NCBI GenBank assembly: GCA_031459875.1
Contig: JAVKHQ010000022.1
Span: 1-45,938 of the forward strand
DNA: 45,938 nt
From: Candidatus Fervidifonticultor sextus
Lineage (GTDB): Bacteria; Sysuimicrobiota; Sysuimicrobiia; Sysuimicrobiales; Humicultoraceae
Direction: 5' to 3'
The stretch's first letter is position 1. Every line of letters begins with the position of its first letter. Positions 54-35,109 of this stretch are shown piece after piece. The translations under genes and the position numbers were made by a program. The notes under the pieces were generated by a model, which was not told the origin of the DNA, did no database searches, and saw only the letters and a program-made list of their open reading frames with translations.

Positions 54-98
54 ATCCTACGGACCGCAGACGGGGCGCGCAACGGATGAGCGCCCGAT
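54..98 (-). promoter_or_regulatory. Regulon promoter: box ATCGGG-CGCTCA-TCCGTT (98-81) plus -10 TAGGAT (59-54)
   Basis: Same architecture as seven other promoters here; spacer 21 nt instead of 22. Confidence 0.5.
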
Positions 99-128
99 GT
101 GGAGGTTCCGCCGGCGGGATGGCGGCGT

Positions 129-956
129 CTAGATCGGATCGCGGCCTTCGAAGAAAGCCAGTGCAACGGCCAGCGGGCCCACGATCCACGCGGCGAGCGC
201 GCCGAGCAGCAATCCTGCGGCGCCGGCGGCGCCCAGACGCGCCGTCAGGAAGCCGCCGACCGGACCGAGCACCTCCAGGGCGGGGTCCAGCAGCAGCAGC
301 GCGAGGATGCGGCCGACCTCCACGGGGTTGAGCAGCACGGCCGCCGCCAGCACCGGTGCGCCGGCGCCGGCGGCGGCACCGGCGGCGATCAGCACGAGGT
401 CGAAGGCCACCACGCTGCCGAACCAGACGGCCAGCGCCCACGCCAGGCCCTGCACCCGGCTGCGCACGGCGGCGGCGATGGCCACCCCGATCGACAGGTA
501 GACCGCGGCCACAGCCAGCGCGATCCCCAGGAAGGCCAGGTACTGCCCCCCGCCGCCCGCGCCCGTCGCGAGCCCGATCAGCACACCGGCCAGTCCAAAC
601 CCCAGCAGCGTCGCCAGGCCGATGGCGGCCAGGGCGCCGGCGAAGCGCGCCAGCAGCAGTTCGCTGCGACCGACGGGCTGCGCCAGAAAGCACTCCAGCA
701 GCCCGACCTCGCGGTCGCCGGCCAGGCCCGTAGCACCCAGCAGCAGCGCGATCAACGGCACCAGACCCAGACAGAGGTTAAGCAGGCTGGCCGTGGTCCG
801 CCCGTAGCCCTCCAGGCCCACGGCGCCGGCCAGGCGGAGGCCGAGCAGCGACAGCCCCAGGGCCAGGACCGCGAAGATGCCACCGTAGGCGAGCAGCCAG
901 CGGTGGCGCATGGCCTCGGCGAGTTCGTGGGCGACCAGCGCCCGCATGGGGCTCAT
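129..956 (-). CDS. nosY: NosY ABC transporter permease (copper-site maturation of NosZ)
   Basis: About 6 TM helices, 'DREVGLLECFLAQPVGRSELLLARFAG' and 'LLNPVEVGR' motifs; ATGA-coupled to nosF. Confidence 0.9.
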   Translation of the reverse strand: MSPMRALVAHELAEAMRHRWLLAYGGIFAVLALGLSLLGLRLAGAVGLEGYGRTTASLLNLCLGLVPLIALLLGATGLAGDREVGLLECFLAQPVGRSELLLARFAGALAAIGLATLLGFGLAGVLIGLATGAGGGGQYLAFLGIALAVAAVYLSIGVAIAAAVRSRVQGLAWALAVWFGSVVAFDLVLIAAGAAAGAGAPVLAAAVLLNPVEVGRILALLLLDPALEVLGPVGGFLTARLGAAGAAGLLLGALAAWIVGPLAVALAFFEGRDPI

Positions 957-1846
957 CGGGGCGTCACCGTGCCGGCCAGGACCTCGGGATCCACCGTGGG
1001 TTCCTCCACATGCACCTCCACCGGCCGGACACCGGCGGCGGCGACCGCCGCGAGGACCTCGAACGCGCCGCCGGCGCGGGTGGTCGCCGTGATGGAACCG
1101 GGCGTCTGTGCGATCCGCACGCCGGGCAGCGCGGTCAGGACGGACGTCAGCTCGGCACGTCCGACGCCGTTCACCCCGAACACGACCCGCTGCTGGACGG
1201 CTCCCCCAAGCCCTTCAGGCGGCCCGTCGTAGACGACCCGGCCGCGGTGGAGGACGAGCGCCCGTGTGGCGATCTGCAGCGGTTCGGCCGCCAGATGTGT
1301 GGCCAGCAGAACGGTCCGTCCCTTCCCGGCCGCCTCTTCGAGGTCCCGGTGTAGGGCCCGGCGGGCTGCCACATCCAGACTGGTCGCGGGTTCGTCGAAC
1401 AGCAGGACCGCAGGATCGGCCTGCAGAGCCACGGCCAGGGCCAGCCGCTGCCGCATGCCGCCCGACAGCGTCCTCACCGGCGCGCGGGCCGCCTCCTCCA
1501 GACCGACGCGGCCCAGCACCGCACCATCCCCACGGGTGCGGCCGCGCAGGCGCGCGAAAAGGTCCAGGACCTCGGTGCACGTCAGGTCGGCCGGCAGCGC
1601 CGGGCGCTGCGGGACGTAGCCGAGCAGGGCGCGGGCCCGCCGGCCGTCGCGGGCCACGTCGTGGCCGCCCACCGTGATCGTCCCGTCGAACCGCAGCAGT
1701 CCCAGGATGCAGCGCAACAGCGTGGTCTTGCCCGCGCCGTTGGAGCCCAGCAGCAGCACGAACGCCCCCTGGGGGACCTCAGCCGTGATCCCATCGAGCG
1801 CGGCCACCGAGCCGAAGCGCTTGCGCACATCGCGGAGGGCGATCAC
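953..1846 (-). CDS. nosF: NosF ABC transporter ATP-binding protein
   Basis: Walker A GSNGAGKT, signature LSGGMRQR, Walker B LLFDEP; lies between nosD and nosY. Confidence 0.9.
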   Translation of the reverse strand: MIALRDVRKRFGSVAALDGITAEVPQGAFVLLLGSNGAGKTTLLRCILGLLRFDGTITVGGHDVARDGRRARALLGYVPQRPALPADLTCTEVLDLFARLRGRTRGDGAVLGRVGLEEAARAPVRTLSGGMRQRLALAVALQADPAVLLFDEPATSLDVAARRALHRDLEEAAGKGRTVLLATHLAAEPLQIATRALVLHRGRVVYDGPPEGLGGAVQQRVVFGVNGVGRAELTSVLTALPGVRIAQTPGSITATTRAGGAFEVLAAVAAAGVRPVEVHVEEPTVDPEVLAGTVTPR

Positions 1847-3864
1847 GTCCGCCGCCTCCTAGCCAGCGCCGCGGCGGCCGCGCCGGAGGGGAGCCCCAGG
1901 GCGAGCCCCACCGCCAGCAGACCGGGCTGCGATCGGACCGGCGCGTCCGACCCCGGGACCGCCGGACCCCGTGCGTCGGCGGCCGGGATGCCCGAGGGCG
2001 GCCGCACCAGCGGGGCCGGATCTTCCACCGCCGGGTCGGTGCGCACCAGGGGCAGGATCCGCCCGGCCGCCTCCAGCGCCAGGTGGGCCGGGGTGAACAG
2101 GAACGCCCGCAGTGCCGGCGCGCGGCGTTCCAGGCCTTCCAGCAGGTCGGACCGCCGGTAGGGCACGTCACCGATCCCGTCGCCGTCGGCGTCGAAGCCG
2201 GTGTAGTCGCTCCAGTAGTTGCCGCGGCCGTCTGGCGCCCACCGGTTGGCGTCCGCCCGCACGGCGCCCCGCGCCTGCACCGGCTGGAGGTTCTCGACGA
2301 TCGCGTTCTCCGTGGCCTCAATCGCCGCGGTGCTCATCAGGCTGAAGGCGACCTCGTTGAACGCGATCAGGTTGCGCTCCACGCGAGCCCACCCGTCCAG
2401 CGTCGCGGGCGTGGCGTCGAACTCCAGCGCGATGCGGTTGCGCACGATGCGGTTCCCGCGCACCAGCAGCCGGTCCGCGTCCTTGAAGATCAGGCCGGCG
2501 CCGGCCGCGGCGGAGCGGCTGCCCTCGAAGGTGTTGTCCAGGAGGACGACGTCGCTGGAGTACATCACGGCCGCGCCCACGATGTTCTCCCGGAAGGTGT
2601 TGGCCCGGAAGGTGTTCCGGCGCGAGTACATGTAGTGGATCCCGTATCGGGAGCCGGTGACCGTGTTGCCCTCGACCAGGTTGTCGTCAGAGAACGAGAT
2701 GTAGATGCCGTCCTTGGCCCGCAGGACCCGGTTGGCCTGCAGGCGGGCGCGCTGGGCCTGCCACAGGTAGAGACCGTGGCCGCGTCGCTCCACGGGCAGG
2801 TCGGCGGTGGCAATGGTGTTCCCCTCGATGAGGGCGTCGCGGGCCCCAGCCAGGTAGATGCCGAAGAGGACCTCCCGGATGTCGTTGTGGCGCACCACGG
2901 CGCGGGCACCGCGCACCACCACGCCGGCGGCCTCTCGGCTGTACGCCAGGGCGCTGCCGCGGATGACGAACCCTTCCAGGCGGACATCGTCGCCGGCGAT
3001 CACGACGACGTCGCCGCGGCCGCCGCCGTCAATGGTGGGGCGGCCGATGCCGCGGAGCGTCACCGGCCTGGAGAGCACGAGCGGCCCCGGGTAGCGGCCG
3101 GGCGGCACCTCGATGGTCACCCCCGGCGGCGCCAGGGCGACGACCGCGGCCAGGTCGCCCGCACGGGCGGCGCGGGCCAGCGCATCTGCGCGTGCGGCCC
3201 CGCCCGGGCCGGCCAGGACGGGGAACGTGCCGACGAGCCCGAGCAGCAGCACCCCCGCCGTCACGGCGGCCGCGATCGGGAGACGGCGCGCGGCGGCCCA
3301 CGCGGAGGAACGGCGGACGCCCACCGTGAATGCCAGCGCGCTGAGGACCAACAGCACGAGCCCGGCCCCGGGCAGGGCCGTCACGTTGAAGTTCATCACC
3401 ACGGTCGGGCCGATCACCCGGGGGGTGAACGCCGGCAGCCGGAAGGCGGCCAGCGGGTCCAGGCTGTGCCCGAACTGGTACAGCCGCCACTGCAGGACGG
3501 CCAGACACATCGCCGGCAGCGCCCAGAGCCCCAGCAGGACCAGGGCCCACAGCCAGCGCCACGGGACCACAGCGGACAGCACCAGCCCCACGACCAGCAG
3601 CACCACCGCCGGGTAGAACAGGCGACCCTCGGGGAATTTGCTCGCGTCGATGGCAGCCATGCCGATGTAGTGGTTGAGCGCATTGAGTTCGTCCACATCG
3701 CCAGTGATCCCGCGGCCGTCAATCACCAGCCGCAGGCCGTTAGGGTACTGGGGCGCGTGGAGGGTCATCTTCCACAACGGGAGCGACGCCCCGAGCACCA
3801 GCAGCGCGGAGGCCAGCCCGATCGCGGCCAGCGCCCGGGTCCGCTCCGGGATCCGGGCGCTCAC
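1843..3864 (-). CDS. nosD: NosB-NosD fusion protein (membrane NosB domain + NosD beta-helix + C-terminal TM anchor)
   Basis: N-terminal 'PLWKMTLHAPQYPNGL...GDVDELNALNHYIGM' typical of clade II NosB; 'SRYGIHYMYS' and 'GNYWSDYTGFDADGDGIGDVPY' of NosD; GTG at 3864 overlaps the nosL stop (GTGA). Confidence 0.85.
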   Translation of the reverse strand: MSARIPERTRALAAIGLASALLVLGASLPLWKMTLHAPQYPNGLRLVIDGRGITGDVDELNALNHYIGMAAIDASKFPEGRLFYPAVVLLVVGLVLSAVVPWRWLWALVLLGLWALPAMCLAVLQWRLYQFGHSLDPLAAFRLPAFTPRVIGPTVVMNFNVTALPGAGLVLLVLSALAFTVGVRRSSAWAAARRLPIAAAVTAGVLLLGLVGTFPVLAGPGGAARADALARAARAGDLAAVVALAPPGVTIEVPPGRYPGPLVLSRPVTLRGIGRPTIDGGGRGDVVVIAGDDVRLEGFVIRGSALAYSREAAGVVVRGARAVVRHNDIREVLFGIYLAGARDALIEGNTIATADLPVERRGHGLYLWQAQRARLQANRVLRAKDGIYISFSDDNLVEGNTVTGSRYGIHYMYSRRNTFRANTFRENIVGAAVMYSSDVVLLDNTFEGSRSAAAGAGLIFKDADRLLVRGNRIVRNRIALEFDATPATLDGWARVERNLIAFNEVAFSLMSTAAIEATENAIVENLQPVQARGAVRADANRWAPDGRGNYWSDYTGFDADGDGIGDVPYRRSDLLEGLERRAPALRAFLFTPAHLALEAAGRILPLVRTDPAVEDPAPLVRPPSGIPAADARGPAVPGSDAPVRSQPGLLAVGLALGLPSGAAAAALARRRRT

Positions 3865-4337
3865 GGGTGCGTCTCCGGCATCGCCAGCAGCGCGGCCCAG
3901 CCGACTACCGGGGCCCCGGGGAAGGCCGCGCGGGCCGCCCCGGTGCTGGCGAAGGCCGCCAGCCCCGTGTTCATGGGCGTCCGGATCGCCTGGGACCGGA
4001 CGTAGATCGCGGCGGATGCCTCCAGCCACTGCTCCGTGGCCATGTCATGGACATAGCCGACGGCCGCCTGCGCCGCGAGCGCCCTGGCGGCGTGCGCGAC
4101 CATGCACCCGATGTCGTCGTAGCGGAACACCGTCTGGCCCTGGCGCGTGGCGGCCGCAAACCGCGGGTCGCTGATGAGCATGCCGCAGTGGTCGCAGCGG
4201 TCGCGGTCGTAGCGAATCGCCGGCGGCCCGCCCGCCGCGGGCGCCCGGCCCAGCAGCGCCCAGGCGGCGGGCGCCACCGCCGCGCCGCCCGCGGCCAGCG
4301 CCGCCAGGTGCAGGAACCTCCTCCGCGTCAACGTCAT
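3861..4337 (-). CDS. nosL: NosL copper chaperone with Tat-like leader
   Basis: CDHCGM, 'YDDIGCM' and 'TPMNTGL' NosL motifs; leader TRRRFLH; GGAGG RBS before ATG 4337. Confidence 0.88.
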   Translation of the reverse strand: MTLTRRRFLHLAALAAGGAAVAPAAWALLGRAPAAGGPPAIRYDRDRCDHCGMLISDPRFAAATRQGQTVFRYDDIGCMVAHAARALAAQAAVGYVHDMATEQWLEASAAIYVRSQAIRTPMNTGLAAFASTGAARAAFPGAPVVGWAALLAMPETHP

Positions 4338-4348
4338 GGGCGTCCTCC

Positions 4349-4373
4349 GGGGAGGGGCGGATGGCCCCTCCCC
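4349..4373 (-). terminator. 10-bp GC hairpin between nosZ and nosL (mRNA stabiliser or partial terminator)
   Basis: GGGGAGGGGC-GGATG-GCCCCTCCCC perfect inverted repeat; no U-tract. Confidence 0.5.
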
Positions 4374-4386
4374 TCCCATCCTCTAC

Positions 4387-6369
4387 CTAGGGCTCCACCA
4401 GCAGCCACCCCTGCATCTCCAGGTGCAGCGCCGAGCAGAACTCGGTGCAGTAGAAACTGAATGCCCCGGCCTTGGTGGCCACGAACTTCACGGTGACCGT
4501 CTCGCCGGGATCGATGCTCATCTGGACGTTGTACTCGGGGATCGCGAAGCCGTGCGTCGCGTCCCGGGTCTTCTCGGTGTTGGTGATGTGCAGGACGACG
4601 GTATCCCCCTTCTTCACGCGGATGATGTCGGGACGGAAGTTGCTGCGGGCCGCCGTCATCCACACCGTGACCACGTTGCCCGTGCGCTCGACCCGCTCCT
4701 TGGTGCGTTCAACCGCATGGGGGCTGCGCTGCATCGTGAGGATATCGGTGCCGGCAGGGTACACCTGCCAGGCCTTGATCTTATCGGCCTTGATGATCTG
4801 GGCGTAGTGGGGCTCGGCGTTGGGGACGGGCATGTCGTAGACCACCCGCATCTTGGACGCGGTCAGGTCGACCAGCTGGAAGTTCTGCGGGTGCAGCGGC
4901 CCCAGCACGGGATACCGGTCCACCGACCACTTGTTCAGCGCCACCAGGTAGCGGCCGTCGGGGCTCACGGTGTCGCCCTCCGCCGTGGCCAGGTGCCCGA
5001 TGTTGTAGTGCACCGACACCTTGTCCACCAGCTTCCAGGCCGCCTCGCCCTTGAAATAGGGCTCACCCAGCGTCCACTTGGCCACCGCGCTGTCTACGAA
5101 CAGACTGGTGTAGGCATAGCCCCGCTCGTCGAACTGGGTGTGCAGCGGCCCGTTCCCCACCGGCACGCGGGCGGCGATCACGGCGTCGAACTTCAGAATC
5201 GGCACGCCGAAGGGATCGGTCCCCTCGAAGTTCCTGGCGGCGATGGCGGCCTTGATCCTGTCGATGTCGTAGACGGTGGTGTGCGGATCCAGTTTCCCCG
5301 AGACGACGATGTACTTCCCGTTGGGCGCCACATCCACCCCGTGGGGGCTGCGCGGCTCCGGCGCGAAGTAGAGCAGCCCTTCCGCGATGGCCGTCTTGAG
5401 GGGGATGACCCGGATCCCGTTCCTCATCTCGAACTTCCCGGCCCGGACGACCTCCTCGGCCTTCTTCCAGTTGATGATGTGGAGGAAGTCGAAGTCCCTG
5501 GCGGAGGCGCCGGCCTCAATGGCCGGCCTGCCCTCCATGTTGCCGCCCGTGGCCATCTCGGTGTTGTAGGAGTTGATGAAGCCCCAGCCGTCGCTGGCGA
5601 GTTTCCCGGCGTCGGCCAGGTCCTGGTTGTAGGGCGGCAACTCGATCTGGAACGACCGGGCTAGGTCGATGCGCCCGGTCTGTTTGTCGACGGCCAGCCA
5701 GGCCGAGACGCCCCGGTAGCGCTCCTTGTACTGCTCCAGCGGCGCGTATCCCCCGCCCCAGACCATCGGGATCTTGCTGGAGACGTGCACGTAGTCGGTG
5801 TTGGGCGTGGCGAAGACCCCGCCGTGGTTGGTCTGCATGTTGGGGATCTTGAGGATCTGCTTGACGCGGAAGTCCCGCAGGTCAATCATGGCGATCCGGC
5901 CGTTGGCGCGGTCGTTGATGTACAACCAGCGGCCGTCGTACTCGCCACCGGTCTCCGACAAGGCGGGATGGTGGGTGTCGCCCCAGGAGAGCGGCACGCC
6001 GTTCCCGTTGGCCCCTTCCTCCAGGACCTTCTCCGACCAGTCCGCGCCGTAGCCGAAGCCCTGCCACGGCTCGGTGGTGAAGGTCGCGATGACCTTGAGG
6101 AGGCGCATGGACGGCAGGCCGATCACCAGCACCTGGCCGCCGTGGCCGCCGGACGAGAACATCAGGTACTCGTCCTGCCGGCCCGGCGGGACGAAACTCT
6201 GGACGGCGAAGGTCACCTCGTCCGGCTTGAGGCCGCGGGCCCCGGCGGCCCGCGCGGCCTCCTGCAGTCCGGCCAGGCCGGAGGCGGACCGGGCGCCGAC
6301 CAGGTAGGCGCCGGCGACCAGCACCGCGGCCAGGACCACCGCCACGACGGTGAGCGTCAAACGGGTCAT
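4387..6369 (-). CDS. nosZ: Clade II (Sec-pathway exported) nitrous oxide reductase, 660 aa
   Basis: WGDTHHP, SPHGVDV, GPLHTQF, NIGHL, EPHY CuZ motifs; CuA 'THGF...CTEFCSALHLEM'; hydrophobic leader without twin Arg; GGAGG RBS and ATGA overlap with the rrf2 stop. Confidence 0.96.
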   Translation of the reverse strand: MTRLTLTVVAVVLAAVLVAGAYLVGARSASGLAGLQEAARAAGARGLKPDEVTFAVQSFVPPGRQDEYLMFSSGGHGGQVLVIGLPSMRLLKVIATFTTEPWQGFGYGADWSEKVLEEGANGNGVPLSWGDTHHPALSETGGEYDGRWLYINDRANGRIAMIDLRDFRVKQILKIPNMQTNHGGVFATPNTDYVHVSSKIPMVWGGGYAPLEQYKERYRGVSAWLAVDKQTGRIDLARSFQIELPPYNQDLADAGKLASDGWGFINSYNTEMATGGNMEGRPAIEAGASARDFDFLHIINWKKAEEVVRAGKFEMRNGIRVIPLKTAIAEGLLYFAPEPRSPHGVDVAPNGKYIVVSGKLDPHTTVYDIDRIKAAIAARNFEGTDPFGVPILKFDAVIAARVPVGNGPLHTQFDERGYAYTSLFVDSAVAKWTLGEPYFKGEAAWKLVDKVSVHYNIGHLATAEGDTVSPDGRYLVALNKWSVDRYPVLGPLHPQNFQLVDLTASKMRVVYDMPVPNAEPHYAQIIKADKIKAWQVYPAGTDILTMQRSPHAVERTKERVERTGNVVTVWMTAARSNFRPDIIRVKKGDTVVLHITNTEKTRDATHGFAIPEYNVQMSIDPGETVTVKFVATKAGAFSFYCTEFCSALHLEMQGWLLVEP

Positions 6370-6824: not shown

Positions 6825-6826
6825 GA

Positions 6827-6850
6827 AAACCGGAGAATCCCCATAGGTTT
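6827..6850. promoter_or_regulatory. Putative Rrf2 operator (24-bp imperfect dyad AAACCGGAGAATCCCCATAGGTTT)
   Basis: AT-rich dyad between the predicted TSS and the rrf2 start; resembles the dyad at 17603-17626. Confidence 0.45.
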
Positions 6851-6860: not shown

Positions 6861-6930
6861 ACCGTAGGGGATGGCGCGCGGGCAGACCATCGGGAGGTGA
6901 CCTGATTTCGCATCGGGGAGACACCCGATG
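6861..6930 (-). promoter_or_regulatory. nos operon promoter: -10 TACGGT (6866-6861), box ATCAGG-TCACCT-CCCGAT (6906-6889), second box CATCGGG-N6-CCCGATG (6911-6930)
   Basis: Two tandem inverted repeats, the second perfect; 22-nt spacer to the -10. Confidence 0.7.
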
Positions 6931-17602: not shown

Positions 17603-17626
17603 AATTCGGATATTTTCGTCCGAATA
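17603..17626. promoter_or_regulatory. Putative repressor operator (ATTCGGA-N8-TCCGAAT) in the nxrA leader
   Basis: Perfect 7-bp inverted repeat (17604-17625) in an AT-rich patch downstream of the -10. Confidence 0.55.
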
Positions 17627-17643: not shown

Positions 17644-17689
17644 ATCCTACCGGGGGATGGGCCCCTCGGCAATCGGTTCGCTACCTGAT
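17644..17689 (-). promoter_or_regulatory. nxr promoter: box ATCAGG-TAGCGA-ACCGAT (17689-17672) plus -10 TAGGAT (17649-17644)
   Basis: 22-nt spacer, identical to the nos promoter; both boxes begin AAATCAGGT. Confidence 0.7.
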
Positions 17690-18274
17690 TTTGCCGGAGG
17701 CGCGATGCTGGTGAGGTGTGTTGATGTTGGCGAGCGTCCGGAGGTGCGGGTCGGCCGCCCGCAGGTCGTCGGCGGTGACCGCCCGGACCCGCAGCCCCTC
17801 CAGCGCCTCGTGCAGGCGCCGCACACCGGCGGCCAGCCGGCCTTCCAGCGCCGGCGCGGCGGCCGCCGCGTAGACCGCGTGGAGCGGGTGCCAGCGGCCG
17901 TCCACATGGGGGACGGCCGCATCGAACCCGACGGCGAAATGGCTCAGCAGTCGGACAGTACGCGCAGACAGAAACGGCAGGTCGCAGGCCGCCGCGAACG
18001 CCCACGGCGTGGTCACCGCCGCCAGCCCGCTGCAGAGGCCGACCAGCGGCAACTGCTGCGGGCTGGCATCCACCACGACGCGGGTGCCCAGCCCCTCATA
18101 GCGGGCGCGGTCCTTGGCGACGATGACCACCTCCGCGCAGCAGGTGCGCAGCGCCTCCACGACGCGCTGGATCATCGGTACACCGTCGATGGGGACAAAG
18201 GCTTTGTCAGTTCCCATGCGCCGGCTCTGCCCGCCAGCCAGAACGATGCCCGTGAGCTCCGCAAGGACGGTCAT
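17681..18274 (-). CDS. mobA: Molybdenum cofactor guanylyltransferase
   Basis: 'GIVLAGGQSRRMGTDKA', 'ACDLPF', 'HPLHAVY', 'NINTP'; ATGA overlap with the moeA stop. Confidence 0.92.
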   Translation of the reverse strand: MTVLAELTGIVLAGGQSRRMGTDKAFVPIDGVPMIQRVVEALRTCCAEVVIVAKDRARYEGLGTRVVVDASPQQLPLVGLCSGLAAVTTPWAFAAACDLPFLSARTVRLLSHFAVGFDAAVPHVDGRWHPLHAVYAAAAAPALEGRLAAGVRRLHEALEGLRVRAVTADDLRAADPHLRTLANINTPHQHRASGKIR

Positions 18275-20082
18275 GGGGGCGCAAGCCAGCCACACGCCAG
18301 TTGTCGGGCGATGAACTCCGCCAGGGCTCCGACGGCGTTCCAGTCGAACCTGACCGGGACGTCCCTCCCGGCCTCGGCCGTGGGAGCGTCCTGCCCGTCG
18401 TCGTCCTGGGGGTCACAGACCACGGCGACCACCGGTCCGGCCGGCGCAGGCCGGTCGGCGGGCACGCCGCGCCGCTGCACCAGGATCTTGAGTAGCGCGG
18501 ACTGGCTGTAGCCTTCCACGAGCACGAGATCGGCAGGCCCGGCCATCGCCAGGACCTCCTCCGGTGGAGGCTCCTCGCCGCCTCCCCGCCGGCGCACGAC
18601 GCCGGCAGGACCGGCCAGGACGACGGTCGCGGCGCCGGCGCGGGCGAACCGGGCGGTGTCGGTGCCCTCCGTGTCGGCGTTGTCGGGATCGAGGTGCGCA
18701 TGGTGCTTCACTGCGGCCACCGTGATGCCGAGCCGATGCAGTTCGGGGATCAGCCGCTCGATCAGCGTGGTCTTGCCGGCATCCCGCGCGCCGACGACTG
18801 CCAGCGCCGGCCGTCCCGATCTCGGCAGCGTCGGGAGGCTGTCGGCGACCAGCAGGCGCACCGTCACGGGCGCGCCGGCCGGCAGATCGGCATTCTGCGG
18901 CTGGACCTCGATGAGGGCATTGGCCTCGCTGGCCGAGCGGAGCGTGGCGGTCCCCTGGCCCGCGAGCGGGGCGACCCACACCCCGGAGGCATCGAGCGTC
19001 GCGCGGGCCCAGAGGAAGCGCCGCCGGCCCGCCGCCAGCGCCAGCGCCCGCGCGAGCCTGGCGCGGACGGCCGGCCGGTGCAGGCGGCGGTGCCCCATGA
19101 TCGCGCACAGCGCCGGGCGGACCAGCAGCTCGAACGCCATGCGCGCCGCACCCGGCGTGCCGGGCAGCGCGAAGACCGGGCGGCCTCCGGCCAGTCCGAA
19201 GGCCACCGGCGCGCCGGGCTTCATCGCCACGCCGACGAACTGCAGCGCGACCCCCGCGCGCACCAGGGCGTCCCGCACGAGGTCCCGATCCCCCACCGAG
19301 GCGCCCCCGCACACGATGAGCACATCGGCCTGCAGGCCTTCCCGGATCTGCTGGACCAGGTCTGCCGCATCGTCGCGGGCGATGCCCAGTAACCTTGGGG
19401 TCGCGCCCACCCCCGCCACCTCGCCGGCCAAGTGGTACGAGTTGCTCTCGCGGACCTGGCCGGGCCGCGGCGCCCTGGTGGGCGGGATGAGTTCGTCGCC
19501 GGTGGCAAGGATGGCGACCGTGGCGCGGCGGACGACGCGCACCACCCCCACGCCCAGGGAGGCCAGCAGGCCCAACTGCCCGCCCCCGAGCACCGTCCCG
19601 GCCTCGAGCACCACCTCGCCGGCACGCGCGTCCTCGCCGGCGGGAAAGATGTGGCGGCCGGAGGCCACGGGCGCTGACACCAGCACGCGGTCCCCCGCCT
19701 CCACCAGGAGTTCCCTGGGGATGACCGCATCGGCCCCAGACGGGACGGGCGCGCCCGTGGCGATGCGGACCGCAGTACCGGGCTGAAGCGCCACCGGCCA
19801 GACCCGGCCGGAGGGGACCGCGCCGACCACCCGCAACGCGACCGGCGCCTCGGCCGAGGCCGCGGCGACATCGGCGGCGCGCACCGCGATCCCGTCCATG
19901 GCGGCCCGCGGGAAGGGCCACAGGTCCCCGGCGGCGACCACAGGCTCGGCCAGAATCCGGCCGGCCGCCTCGGCCAGGGCGACCTCCTCGACGGGGCCGC
20001 GCGACACCGAGCGGAGGATGATCGCCTGGGCCTCCTCCACGGTGGTGGTACTCGCTGCAGGCCGGACCGGATCCGCGCGCAT
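18271..20082 (-). CDS. moeA: Molybdopterin molybdotransferase MoeA fused to MobB
   Basis: 'RAAMDGIAVR', 'ATGDEL', 'MKPGAP', 'LPGTP'; C-terminal MobB 'GARDAGKTTLIERL...VKH...VEGY'; GAGGTG RBS. Confidence 0.9.
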   Translation of the reverse strand: MRADPVRPAASTTTVEEAQAIILRSVSRGPVEEVALAEAAGRILAEPVVAAGDLWPFPRAAMDGIAVRAADVAAASAEAPVALRVVGAVPSGRVWPVALQPGTAVRIATGAPVPSGADAVIPRELLVEAGDRVLVSAPVASGRHIFPAGEDARAGEVVLEAGTVLGGGQLGLLASLGVGVVRVVRRATVAILATGDELIPPTRAPRPGQVRESNSYHLAGEVAGVGATPRLLGIARDDAADLVQQIREGLQADVLIVCGGASVGDRDLVRDALVRAGVALQFVGVAMKPGAPVAFGLAGGRPVFALPGTPGAARMAFELLVRPALCAIMGHRRLHRPAVRARLARALALAAGRRRFLWARATLDASGVWVAPLAGQGTATLRSASEANALIEVQPQNADLPAGAPVTVRLLVADSLPTLPRSGRPALAVVGARDAGKTTLIERLIPELHRLGITVAAVKHHAHLDPDNADTEGTDTARFARAGAATVVLAGPAGVVRRRGGGEEPPPEEVLAMAGPADLVLVEGYSQSALLKILVQRRGVPADRPAPAGPVVAVVCDPQDDDGQDAPTAEAGRDVPVRFDWNAVGALAEFIARQLACGWLAPP

Positions 20083-20134
20083 CCCGCACCTCTGCCGCAC
20101 CCCGCGCAGCCGCCGGAGTGCTGCGCTGTTCCCT

Positions 20135-20180
20135 ACGGTACCGGGCGGCCCCGCCCCTGCCCATCGGGCGAGGAATCGAG
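20135..20180 (-). promoter_or_regulatory. moeA-mobA promoter: proximal half-site CCCGAT (20168-20163) plus -10 TACCGT (20140-20135)
   Basis: 22-nt spacer as in the other regulon promoters; distal half-site degenerate. Confidence 0.55.
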
Positions 20181-26665: not shown

Positions 26666-26711
26666 AGGGTATCGACCCTCGGTCGCGGGCACAATCGGGT
26701 CGCGACCGTAG
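26666..26711 (-). promoter_or_regulatory. Molybdoenzyme operon promoter: box CTACGG-TCGCGA-CCCGAT (26711-26694) plus -10 TACCCT (26671-26666)
   Basis: 22-nt spacer. Confidence 0.6.
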
Positions 26712-27984: not shown

Positions 27985-28635
27985 CTAGGGCCGGATCCCC
28001 CGGCGCGCCGCATAGGCGGCCGCCTCGGTCCGCCGCCGGAGCTGGAGTTTGGCCAGGAGGGTCGTCACGTAGTTCTTGACGGTCTTCTCGCTGATGTGGA
28101 GGGTCTCGCCGATCTCTCGATTCGTGCGTCCTTCGGCGATCAGCGCCAGGACGCGGCGCTCCTGGGGGGTCAGGGGGTCGGGGGCGGATTCGTCGCCGGA
28201 CGCCAGGCGCCGGAAGCGGTCGAGCAGCGTGGCGGTGACCGCGGGGTCGAGCACCGAGCCGCCCGCAGCCGCCACCCGGATGGCGTGGATCAGGTCTGAG
28301 GCGGCGCTGCCTTTGAGTACGTATCCCGCCGCGCCGGCGACCACCGAAGCCTCCACCGCCTCTTCGTCTGCATACGAGGTCAGCATCACCACCTGCGTCT
28401 GTGGCCTGGCGGCCTTGATCTCCCGGCAGGCTTCGACGCCGGTCCCGTCCGGCAGTCGGACGTCCATGATCACCACGTCGGGATGAGCGCGTCCCGCTGC
28501 CGCGATCGCCTGGGCGACCGTCGTCGCCTCTCCGACGATCTCGAACTCGGGCCGGCTGCCAAGCAGCGCGCGGAGCCCGAGCCGGACCACCTCGTGGTCA
28601 TCCACGATGAGCAGTCGCACTCGGTCGGTCGCCAC
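27985..28635 (-). CDS. DevR/DosR-like NarL-family response regulator
   Basis: 'VDDHEVVRLGL', 'DVRLPDGTG', 'TNREIGETLHISEKTVKNYVTTLLAKL...RRTEAA'; start 28635 or 28644. Confidence 0.9.
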   Translation of the reverse strand: MATDRVRLLIVDDHEVVRLGLRALLGSRPEFEIVGEATTVAQAIAAAGRAHPDVVIMDVRLPDGTGVEACREIKAARPQTQVVMLTSYADEEAVEASVVAGAAGYVLKGSAASDLIHAIRVAAAGGSVLDPAVTATLLDRFRRLASGDESAPDPLTPQERRVLALIAEGRTNREIGETLHISEKTVKNYVTTLLAKLQLRRRTEAAAYAARRGIRP

Positions 28636-30781
28636 GTCCTCCACTTCCCCCACCACTGCGGGGCACCTCGACGGCCACGGTCGTCCCTCGGCCAGGCGCA
28701 CTGCGGACGGCCAGGCGGCCACCGATCCAGGCCGCGCGCGCCTGCATGTTCCCCAGTCCCTCGCCGCCCGCGCGCGGGGCGTCCGGGTCGAAACCGCACC
28801 CGTCATCGCGCACCTCCAGGCGGAGGTGCGCCCCGTCACCCTCCAGGCGCACCTCGGCCTGGCTCGCCCGGCTGTGCCTGACGGCGTTCGCCAGGGCCTC
28901 GCGCACGATCATGAGCACCTGCGCGCGGTCGCCCTCGGGCAGGTCGACCGTCCGGTCCTGCGCCTGGATGCGGACGATGAACGGCGCGGTGGCGCTCACC
29001 TCGCCGACCAGGGCCTCCAGGGCCTCGATCAGGGGACGGTCGGTCTCCTTGCGCCGATGGAGACCCCGGACGAACGCCCGGATCTCGTCCGTCACCTTTG
29101 CCATGGCCGCCAGGCATTGCCCCATGCGTTCGGATGCTGCCGCAGGGTCTGCCAGGACGGCCGACCGGGCCGCCTCCAGCGCCAGCGCGATGCCGTAGAG
29201 GGACTGCAGGGTGCTGTCGTGCAGGTCCCGCCCGATCCGTTCGCGCTCTTCGAGTACCGCCAGGTGATGAAGCTGCTCGTGGAGGTCGGCGCTGCGCATC
29301 GCGATGGCCGCCAGGTTGGCCAGGCCTGCCAGCAGGCTGCCGGCGCGGGCATCGAGCCCGACCTGCCCGCGCGAGCCGACGCACAGCGCGCCCTGGACCA
29401 CGCCGTCGAGGACCAGGGGCGCCACCGCGTGCGACCGCTGGTAGGCCGGGCGCAGCACCGGACATCCGCCCCCTGCGGTCCTGGGCAACCGCAGCCTGTT
29501 CGGCCCGGCACACAGCGGGGCCGCGCCGGGGATGACGGCGTCTGCGGCGCCGCTGACGGCCGCCGCCGTCCCGCGCCACCGCTCGCCGGCCAGACACACC
29601 ACGGCCACCTCTGCACCAAGCAGCCGGCGCGCGTGGTCGGCGACCGCCTGGAGCACGCCGCCGAGGTCCGGACGGGCCAGCACCTCCCGGCTGACCTCGT
29701 AGAGGGCGTGCGCCTCGGCCTCGCGTCGGGTGAGATCGTCCAGCAGCGCCCGCAGCCGCTCGCGCATGGCGTCGAAACTCTCCGCCAGCTCACCGATCTC
29801 GTCGCGGCGTTCGACCGGGACGGTGCCCTCCAGGTCCCCTGCCGCGATCCGGCGCGTCTGCGTCGCCAGACACCGCAGCGGCCGGATGACCATCCCGGTG
29901 TCCCACCAGGCGAAGGCCAGCGCGACCAGCAAGGCGACGATCCCGAAGCCGACCATGCGCGTGCGCATCCGGGCCACCGGGGCCAGCGTCTCGGCTTCGG
30001 TCTCACCGAAGCTCACACCCCAGGGGGCGACGCGCGAGGGCGCAAACGCCATGATGTGCTGCTCGATGGGGACGTGGTTCCTGTAGTACGCTGCCGGCCC
30101 CACCCTCGCCTCGCGGCGGGCGATCAGGGCAGCGTGGAAGTCGGGGTGCTCGTCGGCGCCGAAGCGGTCGTCGGCATCGGTGGACGCCAGGATCATCCCC
30201 CGGGCGTCGACGATGACCGCGTGGCCGGTCCGGCCGAGCTGGACCCCGCCGATGTAACGGTCAAGCGGCAGCCGGGACAGGTCTGCGGCCGCACACAGGG
30301 CCCCGGGGTCCGCCGCCACGCACACCAGGACGATCGGCACCGCTGTCCGGGGTGCCGCCACCAGGTCCGAGATGGCCATCCGGCTCCCTGCCAGGACCTT
30401 CCGGACGGCTTCCACGTCTGCCAGGGAGACCCCACGGTCGGACTGCCGCCGGCGGCCGGCCTGCACGACGGTGCCCCGGGCGTCGAGCAGGTAGAGGCTG
30501 TAGGAGGCCAGGGGTTCCTGCGCGGCCAAGCCGTCCCATCGCGCCGCGGCGCCGGGGTCGGAGAGCCGGTGCAGGTCGAGGGACGCCGCCATGCCGGCCA
30601 GGTGCTGCACCGTACGCAGCAGGGCATCATCCAGCCGCTCGGCTAGGGCGCGCGCCGTGATCAGGCGCTCCTCGAGCAGGCGCTGTTTGCTCTCCTGGAG
30701 CATCTGGACGCCGGAGAAGCCGAGGACCACCATAACGGCGGTGAGACCGACGGCCACGGCCGCCAGGATCCGGAGCCGCAA
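28598..30781 (-). CDS. Membrane sensor kinase (Cache-like periplasmic domain, HAMP, GAF, HisKA_3, HATPase)
   Basis: Two TMs, 'RRDEIGELAESFDAMR', 'ERERIGRDLHDSTLQ', 'DDGCGFD...GLGNM'; start codon uncertain (TTG 30781 chosen, no clear RBS). Confidence 0.85.
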   Translation of the reverse strand: MRLRILAAVAVGLTAVMVVLGFSGVQMLQESKQRLLEERLITARALAERLDDALLRTVQHLAGMAASLDLHRLSDPGAAARWDGLAAQEPLASYSLYLLDARGTVVQAGRRRQSDRGVSLADVEAVRKVLAGSRMAISDLVAAPRTAVPIVLVCVAADPGALCAAADLSRLPLDRYIGGVQLGRTGHAVIVDARGMILASTDADDRFGADEHPDFHAALIARREARVGPAAYYRNHVPIEQHIMAFAPSRVAPWGVSFGETEAETLAPVARMRTRMVGFGIVALLVALAFAWWDTGMVIRPLRCLATQTRRIAAGDLEGTVPVERRDEIGELAESFDAMRERLRALLDDLTRREAEAHALYEVSREVLARPDLGGVLQAVADHARRLLGAEVAVVCLAGERWRGTAAAVSGAADAVIPGAAPLCAGPNRLRLPRTAGGGCPVLRPAYQRSHAVAPLVLDGVVQGALCVGSRGQVGLDARAGSLLAGLANLAAIAMRSADLHEQLHHLAVLEERERIGRDLHDSTLQSLYGIALALEAARSAVLADPAAASERMGQCLAAMAKVTDEIRAFVRGLHRRKETDRPLIEALEALVGEVSATAPFIVRIQAQDRTVDLPEGDRAQVLMIVREALANAVRHSRASQAEVRLEGDGAHLRLEVRDDGCGFDPDAPRAGGEGLGNMQARAAWIGGRLAVRSAPGRGTTVAVEVPRSGGGSGGRGDRPSATAHRG

Positions 30782-30871
30782 ACTGAAACGCCTGTGCGTC
30801 GGCGTCCCCCCTGCCGGGACAGGCCTCCGGCCGCTCCACCACCACTGCCGGAGCCTGTGGCGTGTGCCGTC

Positions 30872-30917
30872 AGCGTATCGGGGTTTCCCCTCGGGGTCTA
30901 TCGGGCGACGGACGGAT
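30872..30917 (-). promoter_or_regulatory. Sensor kinase promoter: box ATCCGT-CCGTCG-CCCGAT (30917-30900) plus -10 TACGCT (30877-30872)
   Basis: 22-nt spacer. Confidence 0.6.
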
Positions 30918-30923
30918 GCGGGC

Positions 30924-30957
30924 GGCGCCCGCGGGCCCGGAGAGGCTCGCGGGCGCC
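30924..30957 (-). terminator. 14-bp hairpin after the rhodanese gene
   Basis: GGCGCCCGCGGGCC-N6-GGCTCGCGGGCGCC with one mismatch; no U-tract. Confidence 0.5.
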
Positions 30958-30981
30958 TGCTTGTGCAAGGATCAGTGTACG

Positions 30982-31419
30982 TTACTTCACTACCGGGAAG
31001 TTCTGGGCCGTCCACTCCCGCATGCCCAGCGCCATGGTCTTCGCGTTGGTGTAGCCCAGCAGCCGCAGCGTCATGGTCACGTAGCTCGCCCGCAGGCCCG
31101 AGACGCAGATCACAACGATCTCGGCGTTCTTGTCGGCCGGCAGCCTGTCCAGATTCCTGGGCAGGGTCCGGATCGGGACGTTCACGGCGCCCTGGATGCG
31201 GCCGGCCTCGAACTCCGCCGCCTCCCGCACGTCGAGCAGGAACGGCCTCTCGCCGGCATCCAGCCGGGCCTTGAGCGCCGGGGGCATGATGCTGTGGTAG
31301 TCGGCGGGCAGGTTCGCGAGGAACCCGAACAGCGCTTCCTGAACCGGTGAGGTCTGCGCCACCGCGGTCGGGGCGGCCGCGAGCGCGACCAGCAGGGCGA
31401 CGGTCAACAACCTTTTCAT
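30982..31419 (-). CDS. Exported single-domain rhodanese (sulfurtransferase)
   Basis: Signal peptide ending AVA-Q; 'LDVREAAEFEAGRIQGA'; active-site loop CVSGLR; GGAGG RBS. Confidence 0.9.
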   Translation of the reverse strand: MKRLLTVALLVALAAAPTAVAQTSPVQEALFGFLANLPADYHSIMPPALKARLDAGERPFLLDVREAAEFEAGRIQGAVNVPIRTLPRNLDRLPADKNAEIVVICVSGLRASYVTMTLRLLGYTNAKTMALGMREWTAQNFPVVK

Positions 31420-31437
31420 CGCGTCATTCCTCCTCCC

Positions 31438-32751
31438 TCATCGTGGTGGAATCGGTCTGGGCGGCGCGGTGACCACCTGACCGTTGGCCTGCGAGTCCCC
31501 GGGATTGAGGTCCTGGAGCCGCAGGAACAGGTTCGGGTTGTTGTGACAGGCGTCGCACGTCCGGCTGCGCGCCGTGACCCGCTGGATGTTGTGGGGCGTG
31601 GCGGGTTTCCACGTGGGGATCCTGTCGAAGTTGGCCAGCGTGTTGGGCAGCCGGGTCAGCCGGTCGATCATGTCCGGCGTGGTCGGCACGTGGCGCAGCA
31701 GCATGTAGACATAGGGCAGGTCGCGACTCGTGTTGCGGCCGATCTTGAGGGTCGGCCGCGAGGTCGAGCCTTCCCCCGCATGGCAGCCGTCGCAGCTCTT
31801 GATGATCCCGCCGTGGCAGACCGCGCAGTGCAACTTGCCGCCGTGGACGTTGTGGGCCTGCAGCCGGCTCTTCCCGGGCGCCGCCGTGGGATGGCAGTCG
31901 GTGCACGCCGGCTTGGCCCTCACGGCGCGGCGGGTGGGCGGTGCGCTGCCGTCCCCGTGCAGTTGCGTGGCGCTGTGGCAGGAGGTGCAGGTCATCTTCG
32001 CCTTGGAGAAGTGCACGTCGGCGGGGAAGCCTTCGTAGGTCCCGGTGAACTCGGCGGCCACCCGGCCCGAGTGGCAGCCGTGGCACGTCTGTTCCACCGG
32101 CGGCGATTTCACGAACTCGTGCCCTTTCAAGAGCCCGCCCAGGATGGCAGGCGGCGCCGGCTGATAGGGCGGCCGGCTGACGTGGCAGTCCCCGCAGGTC
32201 GCGTGGCAGCTCTGGCACGACCGCCGATAGACGGGTCTGGCTGCCGTCCAGCGCACGGTTCCCACCAACGCGCGCAGCCCGTTCTCCAATCCCCGCGTCG
32301 TGAAGTGCAGGCTCTTCGCAAACCGGCTCGCGATCTCGGCGTGGCACCCCCCACAGGTCTGCACCGGGTTCGCCGACGGCCGGCGGATCAGCCCGCTGTG
32401 CGCGCTCTTGATATCGAGGGTCTGGGGCTGCCCGGCGTGGCAGGTGGTGCAGCCGAGCTGACCGTGGGTGGAGTTCAAGAACGCCGGTGAGACCAGTTTG
32501 CGTTCGACGGGCGCCCCCGACGGGGGCAGGGGGGCCGCTCACCCTTCACCCTCGGCTGGCGGCGGCGGCAGGGGCGGGACCAGCGGCTCCAACCGCGCCC
32601 GGTCCGTGTGGCAGGCCACGCACCCGTTGCGAGCCTGGCCCGACGGCGCCGGCGGTGCGGCAGCCCCCAGCAGCAGGGCCACGACGGCCACCGTGGCGGC
32701 CAGGGGGGTCAGCCAGCCGATCCGCGCAGTTCGCGTCGGCGTCGGGCGCAT
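31438..32751 (-). CDS. Predicted selenocysteine-containing 11-heme cytochrome c (437 aa, Sec71 at UGA 32541-32539)
   Basis: Signal peptide + CVACH ORF ends AEGEG-TGA and continues in frame without stops (AAPLPPSGAPVERKLVSPAFLNSTHG) into ten more CxxCH motifs; SECIS-like hairpin follows the UGA. Confidence 0.8.
32513..32527 (-). ncRNA. Bacterial SECIS-like hairpin GCCCCC-GUC-GGGGGC
   Basis: Starts 11 nt after the in-frame UGA; apical loop begins with GU. Confidence 0.65.
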
Positions 32752-33170
32752 CACGCCACCTGCCTCCGGATTTGCGCCTCGCGTTCCTTGGCGCGGTGCA
32801 TCACACACAGGATCGCCTGCAGCCACTCGGGATCGATGCGGTCGCGCGGCACGCAGGCACACGCCCCCGCCTGCCAGGCGGCCGCCCGGTACTCGCGGCT
32901 GGACTCCGGCAGCAGCACCAGCAGGCGCAGGCCCGGGTGCTCGACCGCTAGCCCCTCCAGCGCGCCCAGCAATCCGGAGGGGACCAGATGCCAGTCCAGC
33001 AGCAGGACATCGGGCGACCAGGCGGCGAGCCGGTCGCGCGCCTGGGCCAGGGTTGCGGCGTCTTCGACTTCGATCGGGACGGGCAGCAGGGCGCGGGTCG
33101 CCTCAGCCAGGTCTCTGAGCGCACTGCGGAATCCTGGGTCGGCTGCCGCCACCAACACCCGAAACGCCAT
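32751..33170 (-). CDS. Stand-alone atypical receiver-domain protein
   Basis: REC pattern 'RVLVAAAD...PDVLLLDW...AGACACVPR'; TGATG-coupled to the cytochrome. Confidence 0.75.
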   Translation of the reverse strand: MAFRVLVAAADPGFRSALRDLAEATRALLPVPIEVEDAATLAQARDRLAAWSPDVLLLDWHLVPSGLLGALEGLAVEHPGLRLLVLLPESSREYRAAAWQAGACACVPRDRIDPEWLQAILCVMHRAKEREAQIRRQVA

Positions 33171-33188
33171 GCGGCCGTCACCACGTCC

Positions 33189-33256
33189 ATCGTGGCGCGG
33201 CGGCGCCGGGAGCGGAATCGGGAGGTCTCTGAGACCTTCGGGAGGAATTCCCCGAC
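33189..33256 (-). promoter_or_regulatory. Promoter of the receiver-cytochrome-rhodanese operon: -10 CACGAT (33194-33189), box ending ACCTCCCGAT (33234-33217), second box 33239-33256
   Basis: 22-nt spacer; 10 bp identical to the nos box; tandem box 22 bp upstream (23 bp at nos). Confidence 0.55.
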
Positions 33257-33304
33257 AGGGCCTCGGGTCGGCAACCGAACCGGGATGGACCGGGGCGGGC
33301 CGGG

Positions 33305-33967
33305 CTACACGTCCTCGCTCAGCAGCCCCCGGCGCAGCGCGTAGCGCACCAGGTCGGCCCGCGTGGACAGTTCCAGCTTCTCCATGATGCGGGCGCGGTA
33401 GGTCTCGACGCTCTTGGGGCTGAGGCTGAGCTGCGCGGCGATTTCGCGTGCGGTGTAGCCCGAGGCCACCAGCCTCAGCACCTCGCGTTCGCGCTCGCTC
33501 AGCCGATCATAGCCGTCCTGCTCCTCGCCGGACTGGACGCGCGCGACGAAGTCTTCGAGCAGGCGGCGGGCGGCCCCCGGTTGCAGGAACGCACCCCCTG
33601 AGGCTACCGTGCGCACGGCTTCCACCAGTTCGGTATCGGCGGCGGTCTTGTTGAGGTAACCGGCGGCTCCGGCCTTGAGGACCGGGAACAGGTAGCGCTC
33701 CTGGGCATGGACGGTGAGGATGAGGACCTGGGAGGGCAGATCCAGCCTGCGGATCTGCCGCGTGGCCTCCAGGCCGTCCTGGCCGGGCATGCTGATGTCC
33801 ATGATGATCACGTCCGGCCGCAGGCGCTGCGCCAGAGCCACGGCCTCGCGCCCGTCCCCGGCCTCGCCGACTACGCTCATGTCGGGCTCCTGCTCCAGCA
33901 GGGCCCGCAGGCCGGTCCGCAGGACCGGGTGGTCGTCGGCCAGCAGCACGCGGATGCGCTTGGTCAT
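33305..33967 (-). CDS. NarL/NreC-family response regulator
   Basis: 'LADDHPVLRTGL', 'MDISMPG', 'LSEREREVL...SPKSVETYRARIMEKL'. Confidence 0.92.
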   Translation of the reverse strand: MTKRIRVLLADDHPVLRTGLRALLEQEPDMSVVGEAGDGREAVALAQRLRPDVIIMDISMPGQDGLEATRQIRRLDLPSQVLILTVHAQERYLFPVLKAGAAGYLNKTAADTELVEAVRTVASGGAFLQPGAARRLLEDFVARVQSGEEQDGYDRLSEREREVLRLVASGYTAREIAAQLSLSPKSVETYRARIMEKLELSTRADLVRYALRRGLLSEDV

Positions 33968-35055
33968 GTCGTCTGCCCCTCGCCGGCAAGATCGACCTGC
34001 GCGACGATCGTGGTGCCCCCTCCCGGGGCCGACCGCACGTCCAGACGTCCGCCGACCAGCGCTATGCGCTCGCGCATCCCGGCCAGGCCCAGTCCGCCGG
34101 TGCCGCTTCGCGCCCGGGCGGGATCGAAGCCGCTCCCGTCGTCTTCCACCTCCAGAACCACGCGCGATCCGGCTCGATGCAGCCGGACCCAGGCCTGCCG
34201 GGCTCCGGCGTGACGGCGCACGTTGGTCAGGGCCTCCTGGGCGACGCGGTAGAGGGCAAGTTCCACCTCGCGGGGCAGACGGCCGTCCAGACCGTCGACC
34301 GTGAGCGTCATCCGCGTGGGCCCCGCGGCGGTGAGGCTGTCGACGTGGGCGTGCAGGGCATCGACCAGCCCCAGGTCGTCGAGCATCGACGGGCGGAGTT
34401 CCAGGGCAATCCGCCGCACGTCCTCCAGCGCGCGCGCCGTCAGGTCGCGGAGTTCGGCCAGCCGCTGCCGCACCTCATCCGGACCGTGGGCCTGCTCCAG
34501 CAGCCGCAACCGGACCAGCAGCGAGGTGATGGACTGCGCGGCCTCATCGTGCAGTTCGCGGGCGATCCGCCGGCGCTCCTCCTCCTGCGCGCGCAGGATC
34601 TGGCCGGGCAGGCGCCGCAGCCGCTCGGTGTGATCTTCCAGGGCGGCGAGCATCTGGTTGAAGGTGTCGGCCAGGTGGTCGAAACGCTCGTCCGAGGGGC
34701 CCGTCCGGGCGACCCGCACTCCCCTCTGGCCGGCCCGCACCGCATCCACGGCCCGCTGCAGGTGGTCCAGCGGCCTCAGGACGGCCCGCAGCACGAGGAA
34801 GTTCGCCACCAGACTGACGGCCACGCCGGCGAGCGCGAACATCGCCATGAGGTCGTAGTGCGGGGCCTCGGGATGCCGCGCGCCGTGGCCGACGGCGATC
34901 GCCGTCCCCGCCACGGCTCCCAGGGCCACGACGAGCGCGTTGGCGCCGAGGATCTTGTACAGCAGTGGGACGCGCGCCAGCCACCGGAGCACCCCGGTGA
35001 GCGTGCCGCCAGGAGCGCTCGCATCCGCTCGGGTGCCGACGACCTCTCGTTCCAT
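33964..35055 (-). CDS. Two-TM HAMP HisKA_3 sensor kinase with very short extracytoplasmic loop
   Basis: 'RRIARELHDEAAQSIT', 'LRPSMLDDLG', 'QEALTNVRRHA', 'DDGSGFD'. Confidence 0.9.
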   Translation of the reverse strand: MEREVVGTRADASAPGGTLTGVLRWLARVPLLYKILGANALVVALGAVAGTAIAVGHGARHPEAPHYDLMAMFALAGVAVSLVANFLVLRAVLRPLDHLQRAVDAVRAGQRGVRVARTGPSDERFDHLADTFNQMLAALEDHTERLRRLPGQILRAQEEERRRIARELHDEAAQSITSLLVRLRLLEQAHGPDEVRQRLAELRDLTARALEDVRRIALELRPSMLDDLGLVDALHAHVDSLTAAGPTRMTLTVDGLDGRLPREVELALYRVAQEALTNVRRHAGARQAWVRLHRAGSRVVLEVEDDGSGFDPARARSGTGGLGLAGMRERIALVGGRLDVRSAPGGGTTIVAQVDLAGEGQTT

Positions 35056-35063
35056 CCGATTTC

Positions 35064-35109
35064 ACCCTACCGGCCGGGTGGCACGGCGGCCATCGGGCGG
35101 GGGACGTAT
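35064..35109 (-). promoter_or_regulatory. Two-component operon promoter: box ATACGT-CCCCCG-CCCGAT (35109-35092) plus -10 TAGGGT (35069-35064), probably near-leaderless
   Basis: 22-nt spacer; ATG lies 8 nt after the -10 with no RBS. Confidence 0.6.

Follow-up and report, generated by a model that had tools for sequence, protein, structure and literature searches.

The window analysed here, a stretch of 45,938 nucleotides from Candidatus Fervidifonticultor sextus (phylum CSP1-3/Sysuimicrobiota), carries operons for nitrous oxide reduction (nos), a periplasmic-type nitrite oxidoreductase (NXR), molybdenum cofactor synthesis, an Arr/Arx-like molybdoenzyme and a multihaem cytochrome, together with two kinase-regulator pairs. 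Apart from the cytochrome operon, these are preceded by an 18-bp dyad with the consensus ATCRGG-N6-CCYGAT, whose proximal half is the best conserved and which stands in front of a TAnnnT hexamer (Table 1). The initial annotation described eight copies of this arrangement as an island-wide regulon under the response regulator encoded at 33305-33967. A CCCGAT-like proximal half is indeed present at all eight positions, on the minus strand and 22 nt (21 nt at the window edge) from the hexamer. Seven of the eight sites match the box with 0-3 mismatches; the element at 33217 does not belong to this set. The box extends far beyond the window, and its probable binder is encoded on another contig of the same genome.

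Table 1. Boxes with their targets, and regulatory genes discussed in the text. Positions refer to the window unless a contig of the source genome (G000) is given.
Feature	Position	Strand	Match and score	Hexamer (distance)	Target or description
Box	81..98	-	2 mismatches; 16.4 bits	TAGGAT, 54-59 (21 nt)	gene starting at 34, runs off contig
Box	6889..6906	-	perfect; 29 bits; kept in genome G004	TACGGT, 6861-6866 (22 nt)	rrf2-nosZ-nosL-nosD-nosF-permease operon
Box	6912..6929	-	perfect		second box, 23 bp upstream of the 6889 box
Box	17672..17689	-	1 mismatch; 28.5 bits	TAGGAT, 17644-17649 (22 nt)	periplasmic-type nxrA operon
Box	20163..20180	-	weaker, 3 distal mismatches; 19.3 bits	TACCGT, 20135-20140 (22 nt)	moeA-mobB fusion (18271-20100, -), then mobA
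Box	26694..26711	-	weak, 3 distal mismatches; 13.5 bits	TACCCT, 26666-26671 (22 nt)	Arr/Arx-like molybdoenzyme operon
Box	30900..30917	-	2 mismatches; 27.8 bits; kept in G004	TACGCT, 30872-30877 (22 nt)	Cache-HAMP-GAF kinase and DevR-like regulator
Box	35092..35109	-	weaker, 3 distal mismatches; 19.1 bits	TAGGGT, 35064-35069 (22 nt)	window kinase-regulator pair (33964-35055, 33305-33967)
Box	37998..38015	+	1 mismatch; 22.9 bits	TACAGT, 38038-38043 (22 nt)	ArsR-permease operon
Candidate box, unconfirmed	39905..39922	+	weak; 11 bits	poor -10	before HdrD-like/ETF operon
Tandem operator, 40 bp	33217..33256	-		CACGAT, 33189-33194 (22 nt)	
NarL-family response regulator	33305..33967	-			helix KSVETYRAR
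Membrane HAMP-HisKA_3 kinase	33964..35055	-			partner of the 33305-33967 regulator
C4 regulator	G000:C4:34537-35193				KTVQTHRAH member in the source genome
C4 kinase	G000:C4:32771-34540				overlaps C4 regulator; hydrophobic N-terminus, GAF, HisKA_3, HATPase
Divergent THRTH paralogue	G000:C29:5893-6531				last gene of boxed operon

The box in the window, the genome and the phylum

Within the window, the pattern CCGAT-N22-TAnnnT occurs six times, against four for the sum over 16 other spacings (14-30). A matrix built from 39 sites of other genomes finds seven of the eight noted sites again, at 13.5-29 bits, and has no match in the coding regions of the window. It adds three sites that the initial annotation had overlooked: 6912-6929, which is likely a tandem upstream site, 37998-38015 and the candidate at 39905-39922. 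Three related loci likewise carry a box before arsR. A similar weak box lies at a position comparable to 26694 in genome G004. The 35092 box is also present in G004 and G030, with no copy found at the seven other orthologous loci shown. The gene labels hold: the nos operon encodes a Sec-dependent NosZ, Rrf2, NosL, NosD and an ABC transporter, and NxrA, the large subunit of a DMSO-reductase type II operon, matches the anammox NXR 7b04 with 1802 bits.

In the source genome, where the genes for the scan were called with a purpose-built codon model, 32 of the 1466 upstream regions score at least 12 bits with the 39-site matrix, compared with 0.7 in shuffled regions (mean of 20), so that the paired motif exceeds chance. 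At a threshold of at least 13 bits the genome holds 28 sites, of which 20 are on other contigs and eight are in the window, which represents 1.5% of the genome and remains a hot spot. A matrix made from the eight window sites gives 20 upstream matches on other contigs (spacings 12-32), 12 of them at 21-23 nt. Since an in-genome iterated model (43 sites) is partly circular, site counts were taken from the matrix trained on other genomes; the looser 43-site model provided the list of targets outside the window, which comprises an FrdA/SdhA-type flavoprotein, PFOR, malic enzyme, HypC, haemerythrin, a CooC-like ATPase, PfpI and an Rrf2-copper-oxidase open reading frame (ORF). The latter is a single ORF (G000:C67:83280-84866, L134:5280-6866) that joins Rrf2 and copper-oxidase (NirK-like) domains and has a strong box in front.

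The strict pattern is present in 82 of the 94 genomes of the phylum, with 552 matches at 21-23 nt versus 28 at 26-28 nt. This spacing control was used instead of a reversed-pattern control, which gave 0 matches in all 94 genomes and was judged too lenient. In three other genomes, 47 of the 60 downstream ORFs were scanned and include Usp, CBS, HypF, PFOR, AprB, multihaem cytochromes, a molybdoenzyme, MobA, transporters and citrate synthase. The predicted promoters with this box are spread over the whole genome and across the phylum and do not form an island set. What stands from the initial proposal is one promoter architecture, with a predicted NarL/LuxR-family dimer site adjoining the -35 region, and the co-regulation of the nos, nxr, molybdenum cofactor and other redox operons.

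Some other features of the boxed operons can be mentioned. Inverted repeats lie directly downstream of the -10 hexamers of nos (6827-6850) and nxr (17604-17625) and are candidate repressor sites, for Rrf2 in the case of nos. NosD (1843-3864, -) has a hydrophobic N-terminal extension of about 240 residues with no Pfam match. The pair at 27985-30781 (-) comprises a Cache-HAMP-GAF kinase and a regulator (27985-28656) with the helix KTVKNYV, which we take to be DevR-like.

A NarL-family regulator group that accompanies the box

The sites left in site-poor genomes adjoin a group of NarL-family regulators with the helix KTVQTHRAH, which is found in 69 of the 94 genomes. The member in the source genome, on contig C4, consists of a receiver and a LuxR/GerE helix-turn-helix domain and is paired with a HisKA_3 kinase. 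Among genomes that are at least 90% complete, at least three sites are present in 35 of 48 carriers of the group versus 0 of 12 non-carriers, and all eight genera holding both carriers and non-carriers agree in direction. The 19 genomes with neither the regulator nor the sensor have 14 sites together, seven of them in two incomplete assemblies. As a sign of self-regulation, the box lies just upstream of 10 of 16 KTVQTHRAH members not directly behind a kinase versus 0 of 8 kinase-adjacent members, a comparison that is weakened by loci partly picked for a nearby box.

A held-out set of 121 Chloroflexota genomes, 79 of them without a site and 13 with 3-29 sites, points in the same direction. Among the best 30 regulator loci, which cover 10 of the 13 genomes with at least three sites, 10 of 18 THRxH regulators come from such genomes versus 0 of 12 others, and the box lies inside the locus for 8 of 18 versus 0 of 12, the 12 including two loci with an unparsed helix. 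In a quick tree of 76 regulators, the box-linked THRxH proteins form three groups, and one of these has as its sister the TYRxR group, to which the window regulator belongs. As these groups are separate, the box appears to track the helix and not ancestry. Four KTVQTHR-type regulators of Chloroflexota stand behind GAF kinases similar to the C4 kinase, and the one kinase examined matches DosT/DevS haem-GAF structures (E 5e-37); four other regulators stand behind kinases like the window's own. In the Chloroflexota genomes G114 (29 sites), G172, G163 and G145, this box belongs to a large regulon, and the regulator is flanked by DosS-type GAF kinases.

Based on these observations, we consider the box to be the activation site of the KTVQTHRAH regulator on C4, perhaps also of its paralogue on C29, and not of the window regulator, with a probability of roughly 0.7. 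Several points weigh against this assignment. Three genomes with no regulator match (G017, G022 and G068; 59-86% complete) have 3-17 sites, G068 keeping the sensor, and eight genomes of one genus (g12) carry the regulator and hold 0-2 strict sites. The co-occurrence is counted among kin, so that a co-inherited factor could explain it, and several of the Chloroflexota positives are close kin as well. The tree is a quick one, in which the three THRxH groups join at an unresolved fork.

The window regulator and other candidate binders

The regulator at 33305-33967, whose nearest named relatives are from Ca. Sysuimicrobiota (CSP1-3), is a different case. Since the promoter of its operon carries the global box at 35092, the kinase-regulator pair is predicted to be a target of the regulon, in a second tier of the network, and not its master. 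The element at 33217, counted by the initial annotation among the copies of the box, has a distal half that differs from the box at five of six positions and a box score of -16.7. Aligning ten regions behind 33305-type regulators showed that it is the proximal end of a longer element, which a simple dyad count failed to pick up. In this element two 6-5-6 units repeat at a period of 23 bp, and the outer half-sites, which are strong, lie 28 nt from each other. The 28-nt outer spacing is found at 17 of 46 orthologous loci (CSP1-3, Chloroflexota, Rokubacteria) versus 0 of 31 distant loci. A matrix of this tandem operator finds a single site in the source genome, 33217-33256, at 31.5 bits, the next best scoring 11.5. 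A loose version of the pattern is noisy across the phylum (34 of 94 genomes), and its eight matches with an AT-rich spacer are, by eye, all in carriers of the 33305-type regulator. The element is probably the regulator's own operator, and most likely the only site to which it binds.

The operator would drive a receiver-only gene (32751-33170, -) and the cytochrome operon. Receiver-only genes preceded by an operator or box recur directly behind these regulators, as also at G000:C4:40735-41085, L093:7387-7779 and L104:6719-7105, and may be feedback phosphate sinks. The multihaem cytochrome (31438-32751, -) has an in-frame TGA at 32539-32541, with a strong hairpin immediately after, and both halves of the protein are conserved in relatives, which is consistent with its initial label as a selenoprotein.

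Shared control is the alternative that survives best, though we regard it as unlikely: the C4 regulator would be the main binder, and the window kinase would phosphorylate it or the window regulator would bind half-sites weakly. The half-sites are near-identical (GTCRGG vs ATCRGG), the 23-bp tandem spacing is common to both elements (6889/6912; 33217-33256), and Chloroflexota kinases 42% identical to the window kinase (33964-35055) pair with THRTH-helix regulators adjoining the 18-bp box. However, the spacer is 5 bp instead of 6 bp, and no strict site is seen in the five Chloroflexota/Rokubacteria genomes whose sole regulator is of the window type.

That the 33305-33967 regulator itself occupies all eight sites and governs an island regulon, as initially proposed, is very improbable and largely refuted. 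It sits among the sites, in a window with 8 of the 28, its own operon is boxed, and it shares 54% identity with the C4 regulator; yet its orthologues (at least 72% identity) occur in only 13 of the 94 genomes and bear no relation to site number. At least three sites are found in 5 of 9 carriers versus 30 of 51 non-carriers, and 38 of the 46 genomes with at least five sites have no orthologue, including the site-richest ones, G067 (39 sites) and G066 (26 sites), while five carriers hold 0-1 sites. Only one of 47 upstream regions of orthologous kinases shows even a half-site match, the helix (TYRAR) is different, and the conserved tandem operator described above is probably its own. This regulator was rejected as master on its distribution, the lack of relation to site number and the five site-free carriers outside the phylum.

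Still less probable is another regulator, gained and lost with the C4-type pair. Presence and absence cannot split co-inherited genes, and the profiling covered five candidate regulators, with the other LuxR-type genes of the source genome and 27985-28656 outside it; against this, boxes lie directly before stand-alone THRxH regulators in differing gene contexts, and, in another phylum, next to THRxH regulators whose sensors are unrelated. In the CRP family, an Arg-Glu helix pair reads TGA-type half-sites. A CRP/FNR-family activator of altered specificity is the least plausible binder. In its favour, the box has a CRP-like 6-bp spacer and a position and targets resembling those of FNR regulons, and the source genome has three CRP-family genes. 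Against it, all three proteins keep the Arg-Glu pair, and close homologues, found in 5, 12 and 41 of the 94 genomes, are lacking in site-rich ones and, for two of the three proteins, occur in site-free ones. The three proteins were rejected as binders.

The sensor, related systems and the proposed role of the regulon

In the C4 kinase, Cys278, Cys280 and Cys298, which lie in the GAF domain, and His311 are invariant in all nine aligned kinases. The motif Cys-x-Cys-x17-19-Cys is kept in 118 of 118 homologues, and the source genome has one such protein. Its spacing, Cys-x-Cys-x17-Cys in the C4 kinase, equals that of the last three cysteines in the [2Fe-2S] motif of AirS, Cys-X7-Cys-X-Cys-X17-Cys (PMC4601167). 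As three of the four AirS ligands match in spacing, we infer that the domain houses an iron-sulfur cluster like that of AirS, with which it would read the oxygen or redox state. No DevS/DosT GAF match was found for a CSP1-3 sensor. Low oxygen is probably the condition that turns the regulon on, by our estimate at odds of nearly two to one, because two independent oxygen/redox-type sensors converge on one box and because of the nature of the targets. Against this reading of sensor and targets, the first cysteine of the AirS motif is absent in all nine aligned kinases, homologues of the sensor reach Bacillota and Deinococcota and none among the matches is named AirS or YhcY, and some boxed targets, such as citrate synthase and transporters, are not anaerobic markers. 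The opposite direction of the signal would fit AirS, whose active form reportedly has its cluster oxidised (PMC8774646).

In the proposed mechanism, the cluster would sense oxygen or redox state and the kinase would phosphorylate the C4 regulator, a dimer of which would bind the box centred at about -43.5 (22-nt gap, hexamer at -12 to -7). The box-to-hexamer spacing is constant at 21-23 nt, whereas the -43.5 centre assumes a start site inferred from the hexamer. The bound dimer would recruit RNA polymerase to weak promoters, as does NarL of E. coli at yeaR, where a single dimer, bound to a dyad whose centre is at -43.5, acts via the alpha subunit's C-terminal domain (PMC10853779). Genes for nitrous oxide, nitrate and other low-oxygen metabolism would be switched on together, and the regulon would drive secondary regulators, namely Rrf2, ArsR and two kinase-regulator pairs, with the 33305 regulator using its own tandem operator in the second tier.

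The proposed system and that of NarL both have a NarL/FixJ-type regulator, a dyad just upstream of -35 and genes of anaerobic respiration as targets, but NarL reads a 7-2-7 site and responds to nitrate via NarX, whereas the box is a 6-6-6 site of other sequence and the kinase has a cysteine GAF domain. The NreC site of staphylococci, TAGGGA-N4-TCCCTA, would share the geometry of the box. NreBC likewise combines a Fe-S oxygen-sensing kinase with a NarL-family regulator, replacing FNR, and NreC binds a GC-rich palindrome at nitrate-respiration promoters; NreB, in contrast, has a PAS domain with CX2CX11CX2C, where the present sensor has a GAF domain with another spacing, and the present regulon is broader (PMC8139620, PMC5694512, PMC4601167). 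AirSR (YhcSR) of S. aureus also has a HisKA_3-type kinase beside a NarL-family regulator and a global redox role (PMC4601167, PMC8774646, PMC4029521). It differs in that the C4 kinase has an invariant histidine after the cysteines in place of the first of the four, that this kinase carries some 210 additional, hydrophobic residues at its N-terminus, in its targets, and in the proposed AirR motif, AAATNNAAAATNNNNTT, which is AT-rich and unrelated to the GC-rich dyad. The literature search, with subscription journals and RegPrecise outside its scope, found no AirR/YhcZ site matching the box.

The hypoxia regulons of DosR/DevR and OsdR are similar in their clustered and scattered boxes, their Usp/CBS and nitrate-type enzyme targets and their self-regulation (PMC5069765), and the box-linked regulators of Chloroflexota use DosS/DosT-like haem GAF kinases (one tested). 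However, the OsdR box, AGGGCCGATCGGCCCT, and its helix are different, and the CSP1-3 sensor is a cysteine GAF. With regard to CRP/FNR, the box is not of the TTGAT-N4-ATCAA type, and none of the three CRP-family proteins profiled is co-distributed with it. The system would thus work like NreBC or DosR with an AirS-like sensor, and appears to lie outside AirSR, NreBC, DosR and FNR by the features that define each of them.

This is a well-supported and apparently undescribed global redox regulon of a familiar mechanistic kind, with predicted binding, start sites and signal. Among the paper listings searched, none showed this motif or a regulon for this phylum; subscription journals, supplements, RegPrecise and the primary NreC papers, which may contain a related site, lay outside the scope of the search. 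A term search of the main text of the phylum genome paper, supplements being outside its scope, returned no 'regulat', 'promoter' or 'two-component', and this paper proposes nitrite oxidation by the periplasmic NXR (PMC11604079). A wider interpretation, which we put forward tentatively and at less than even odds, is that the Cys-GAF iron-sulfur kinase and the THRxH regulator are the FNR substitute of the whole phylum. The Nitrospira/anammox-type NXR would then be a respiratory nitrate reductase and not a nitrite oxidiser, since it would be induced together with N2O reductase and fermentative genes at low oxygen. Across two phyla, the helix-box code would have been rewired to at least three unrelated sensors, and the switch to a tandem operator with a 5-bp spacer would go along with two changes in the helix (THRAH to TYRAR).

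For CSP1-3/Sysuimicrobiota, an uncultured phylum that is widespread, the box provides a first map of regulation, and it allows redox genes, unknown ones among them, to be predicted in some 70 genomes. The two helices with their operators form a natural pair for the study of NarL-family specificity, and the window illustrates that a regulator may be the closest one within an island and yet be a target and not the master. As nxr has the box in common with nosZ, PFOR and hydrogenase-maturation genes, the direction of NXR becomes testable from transcript data.

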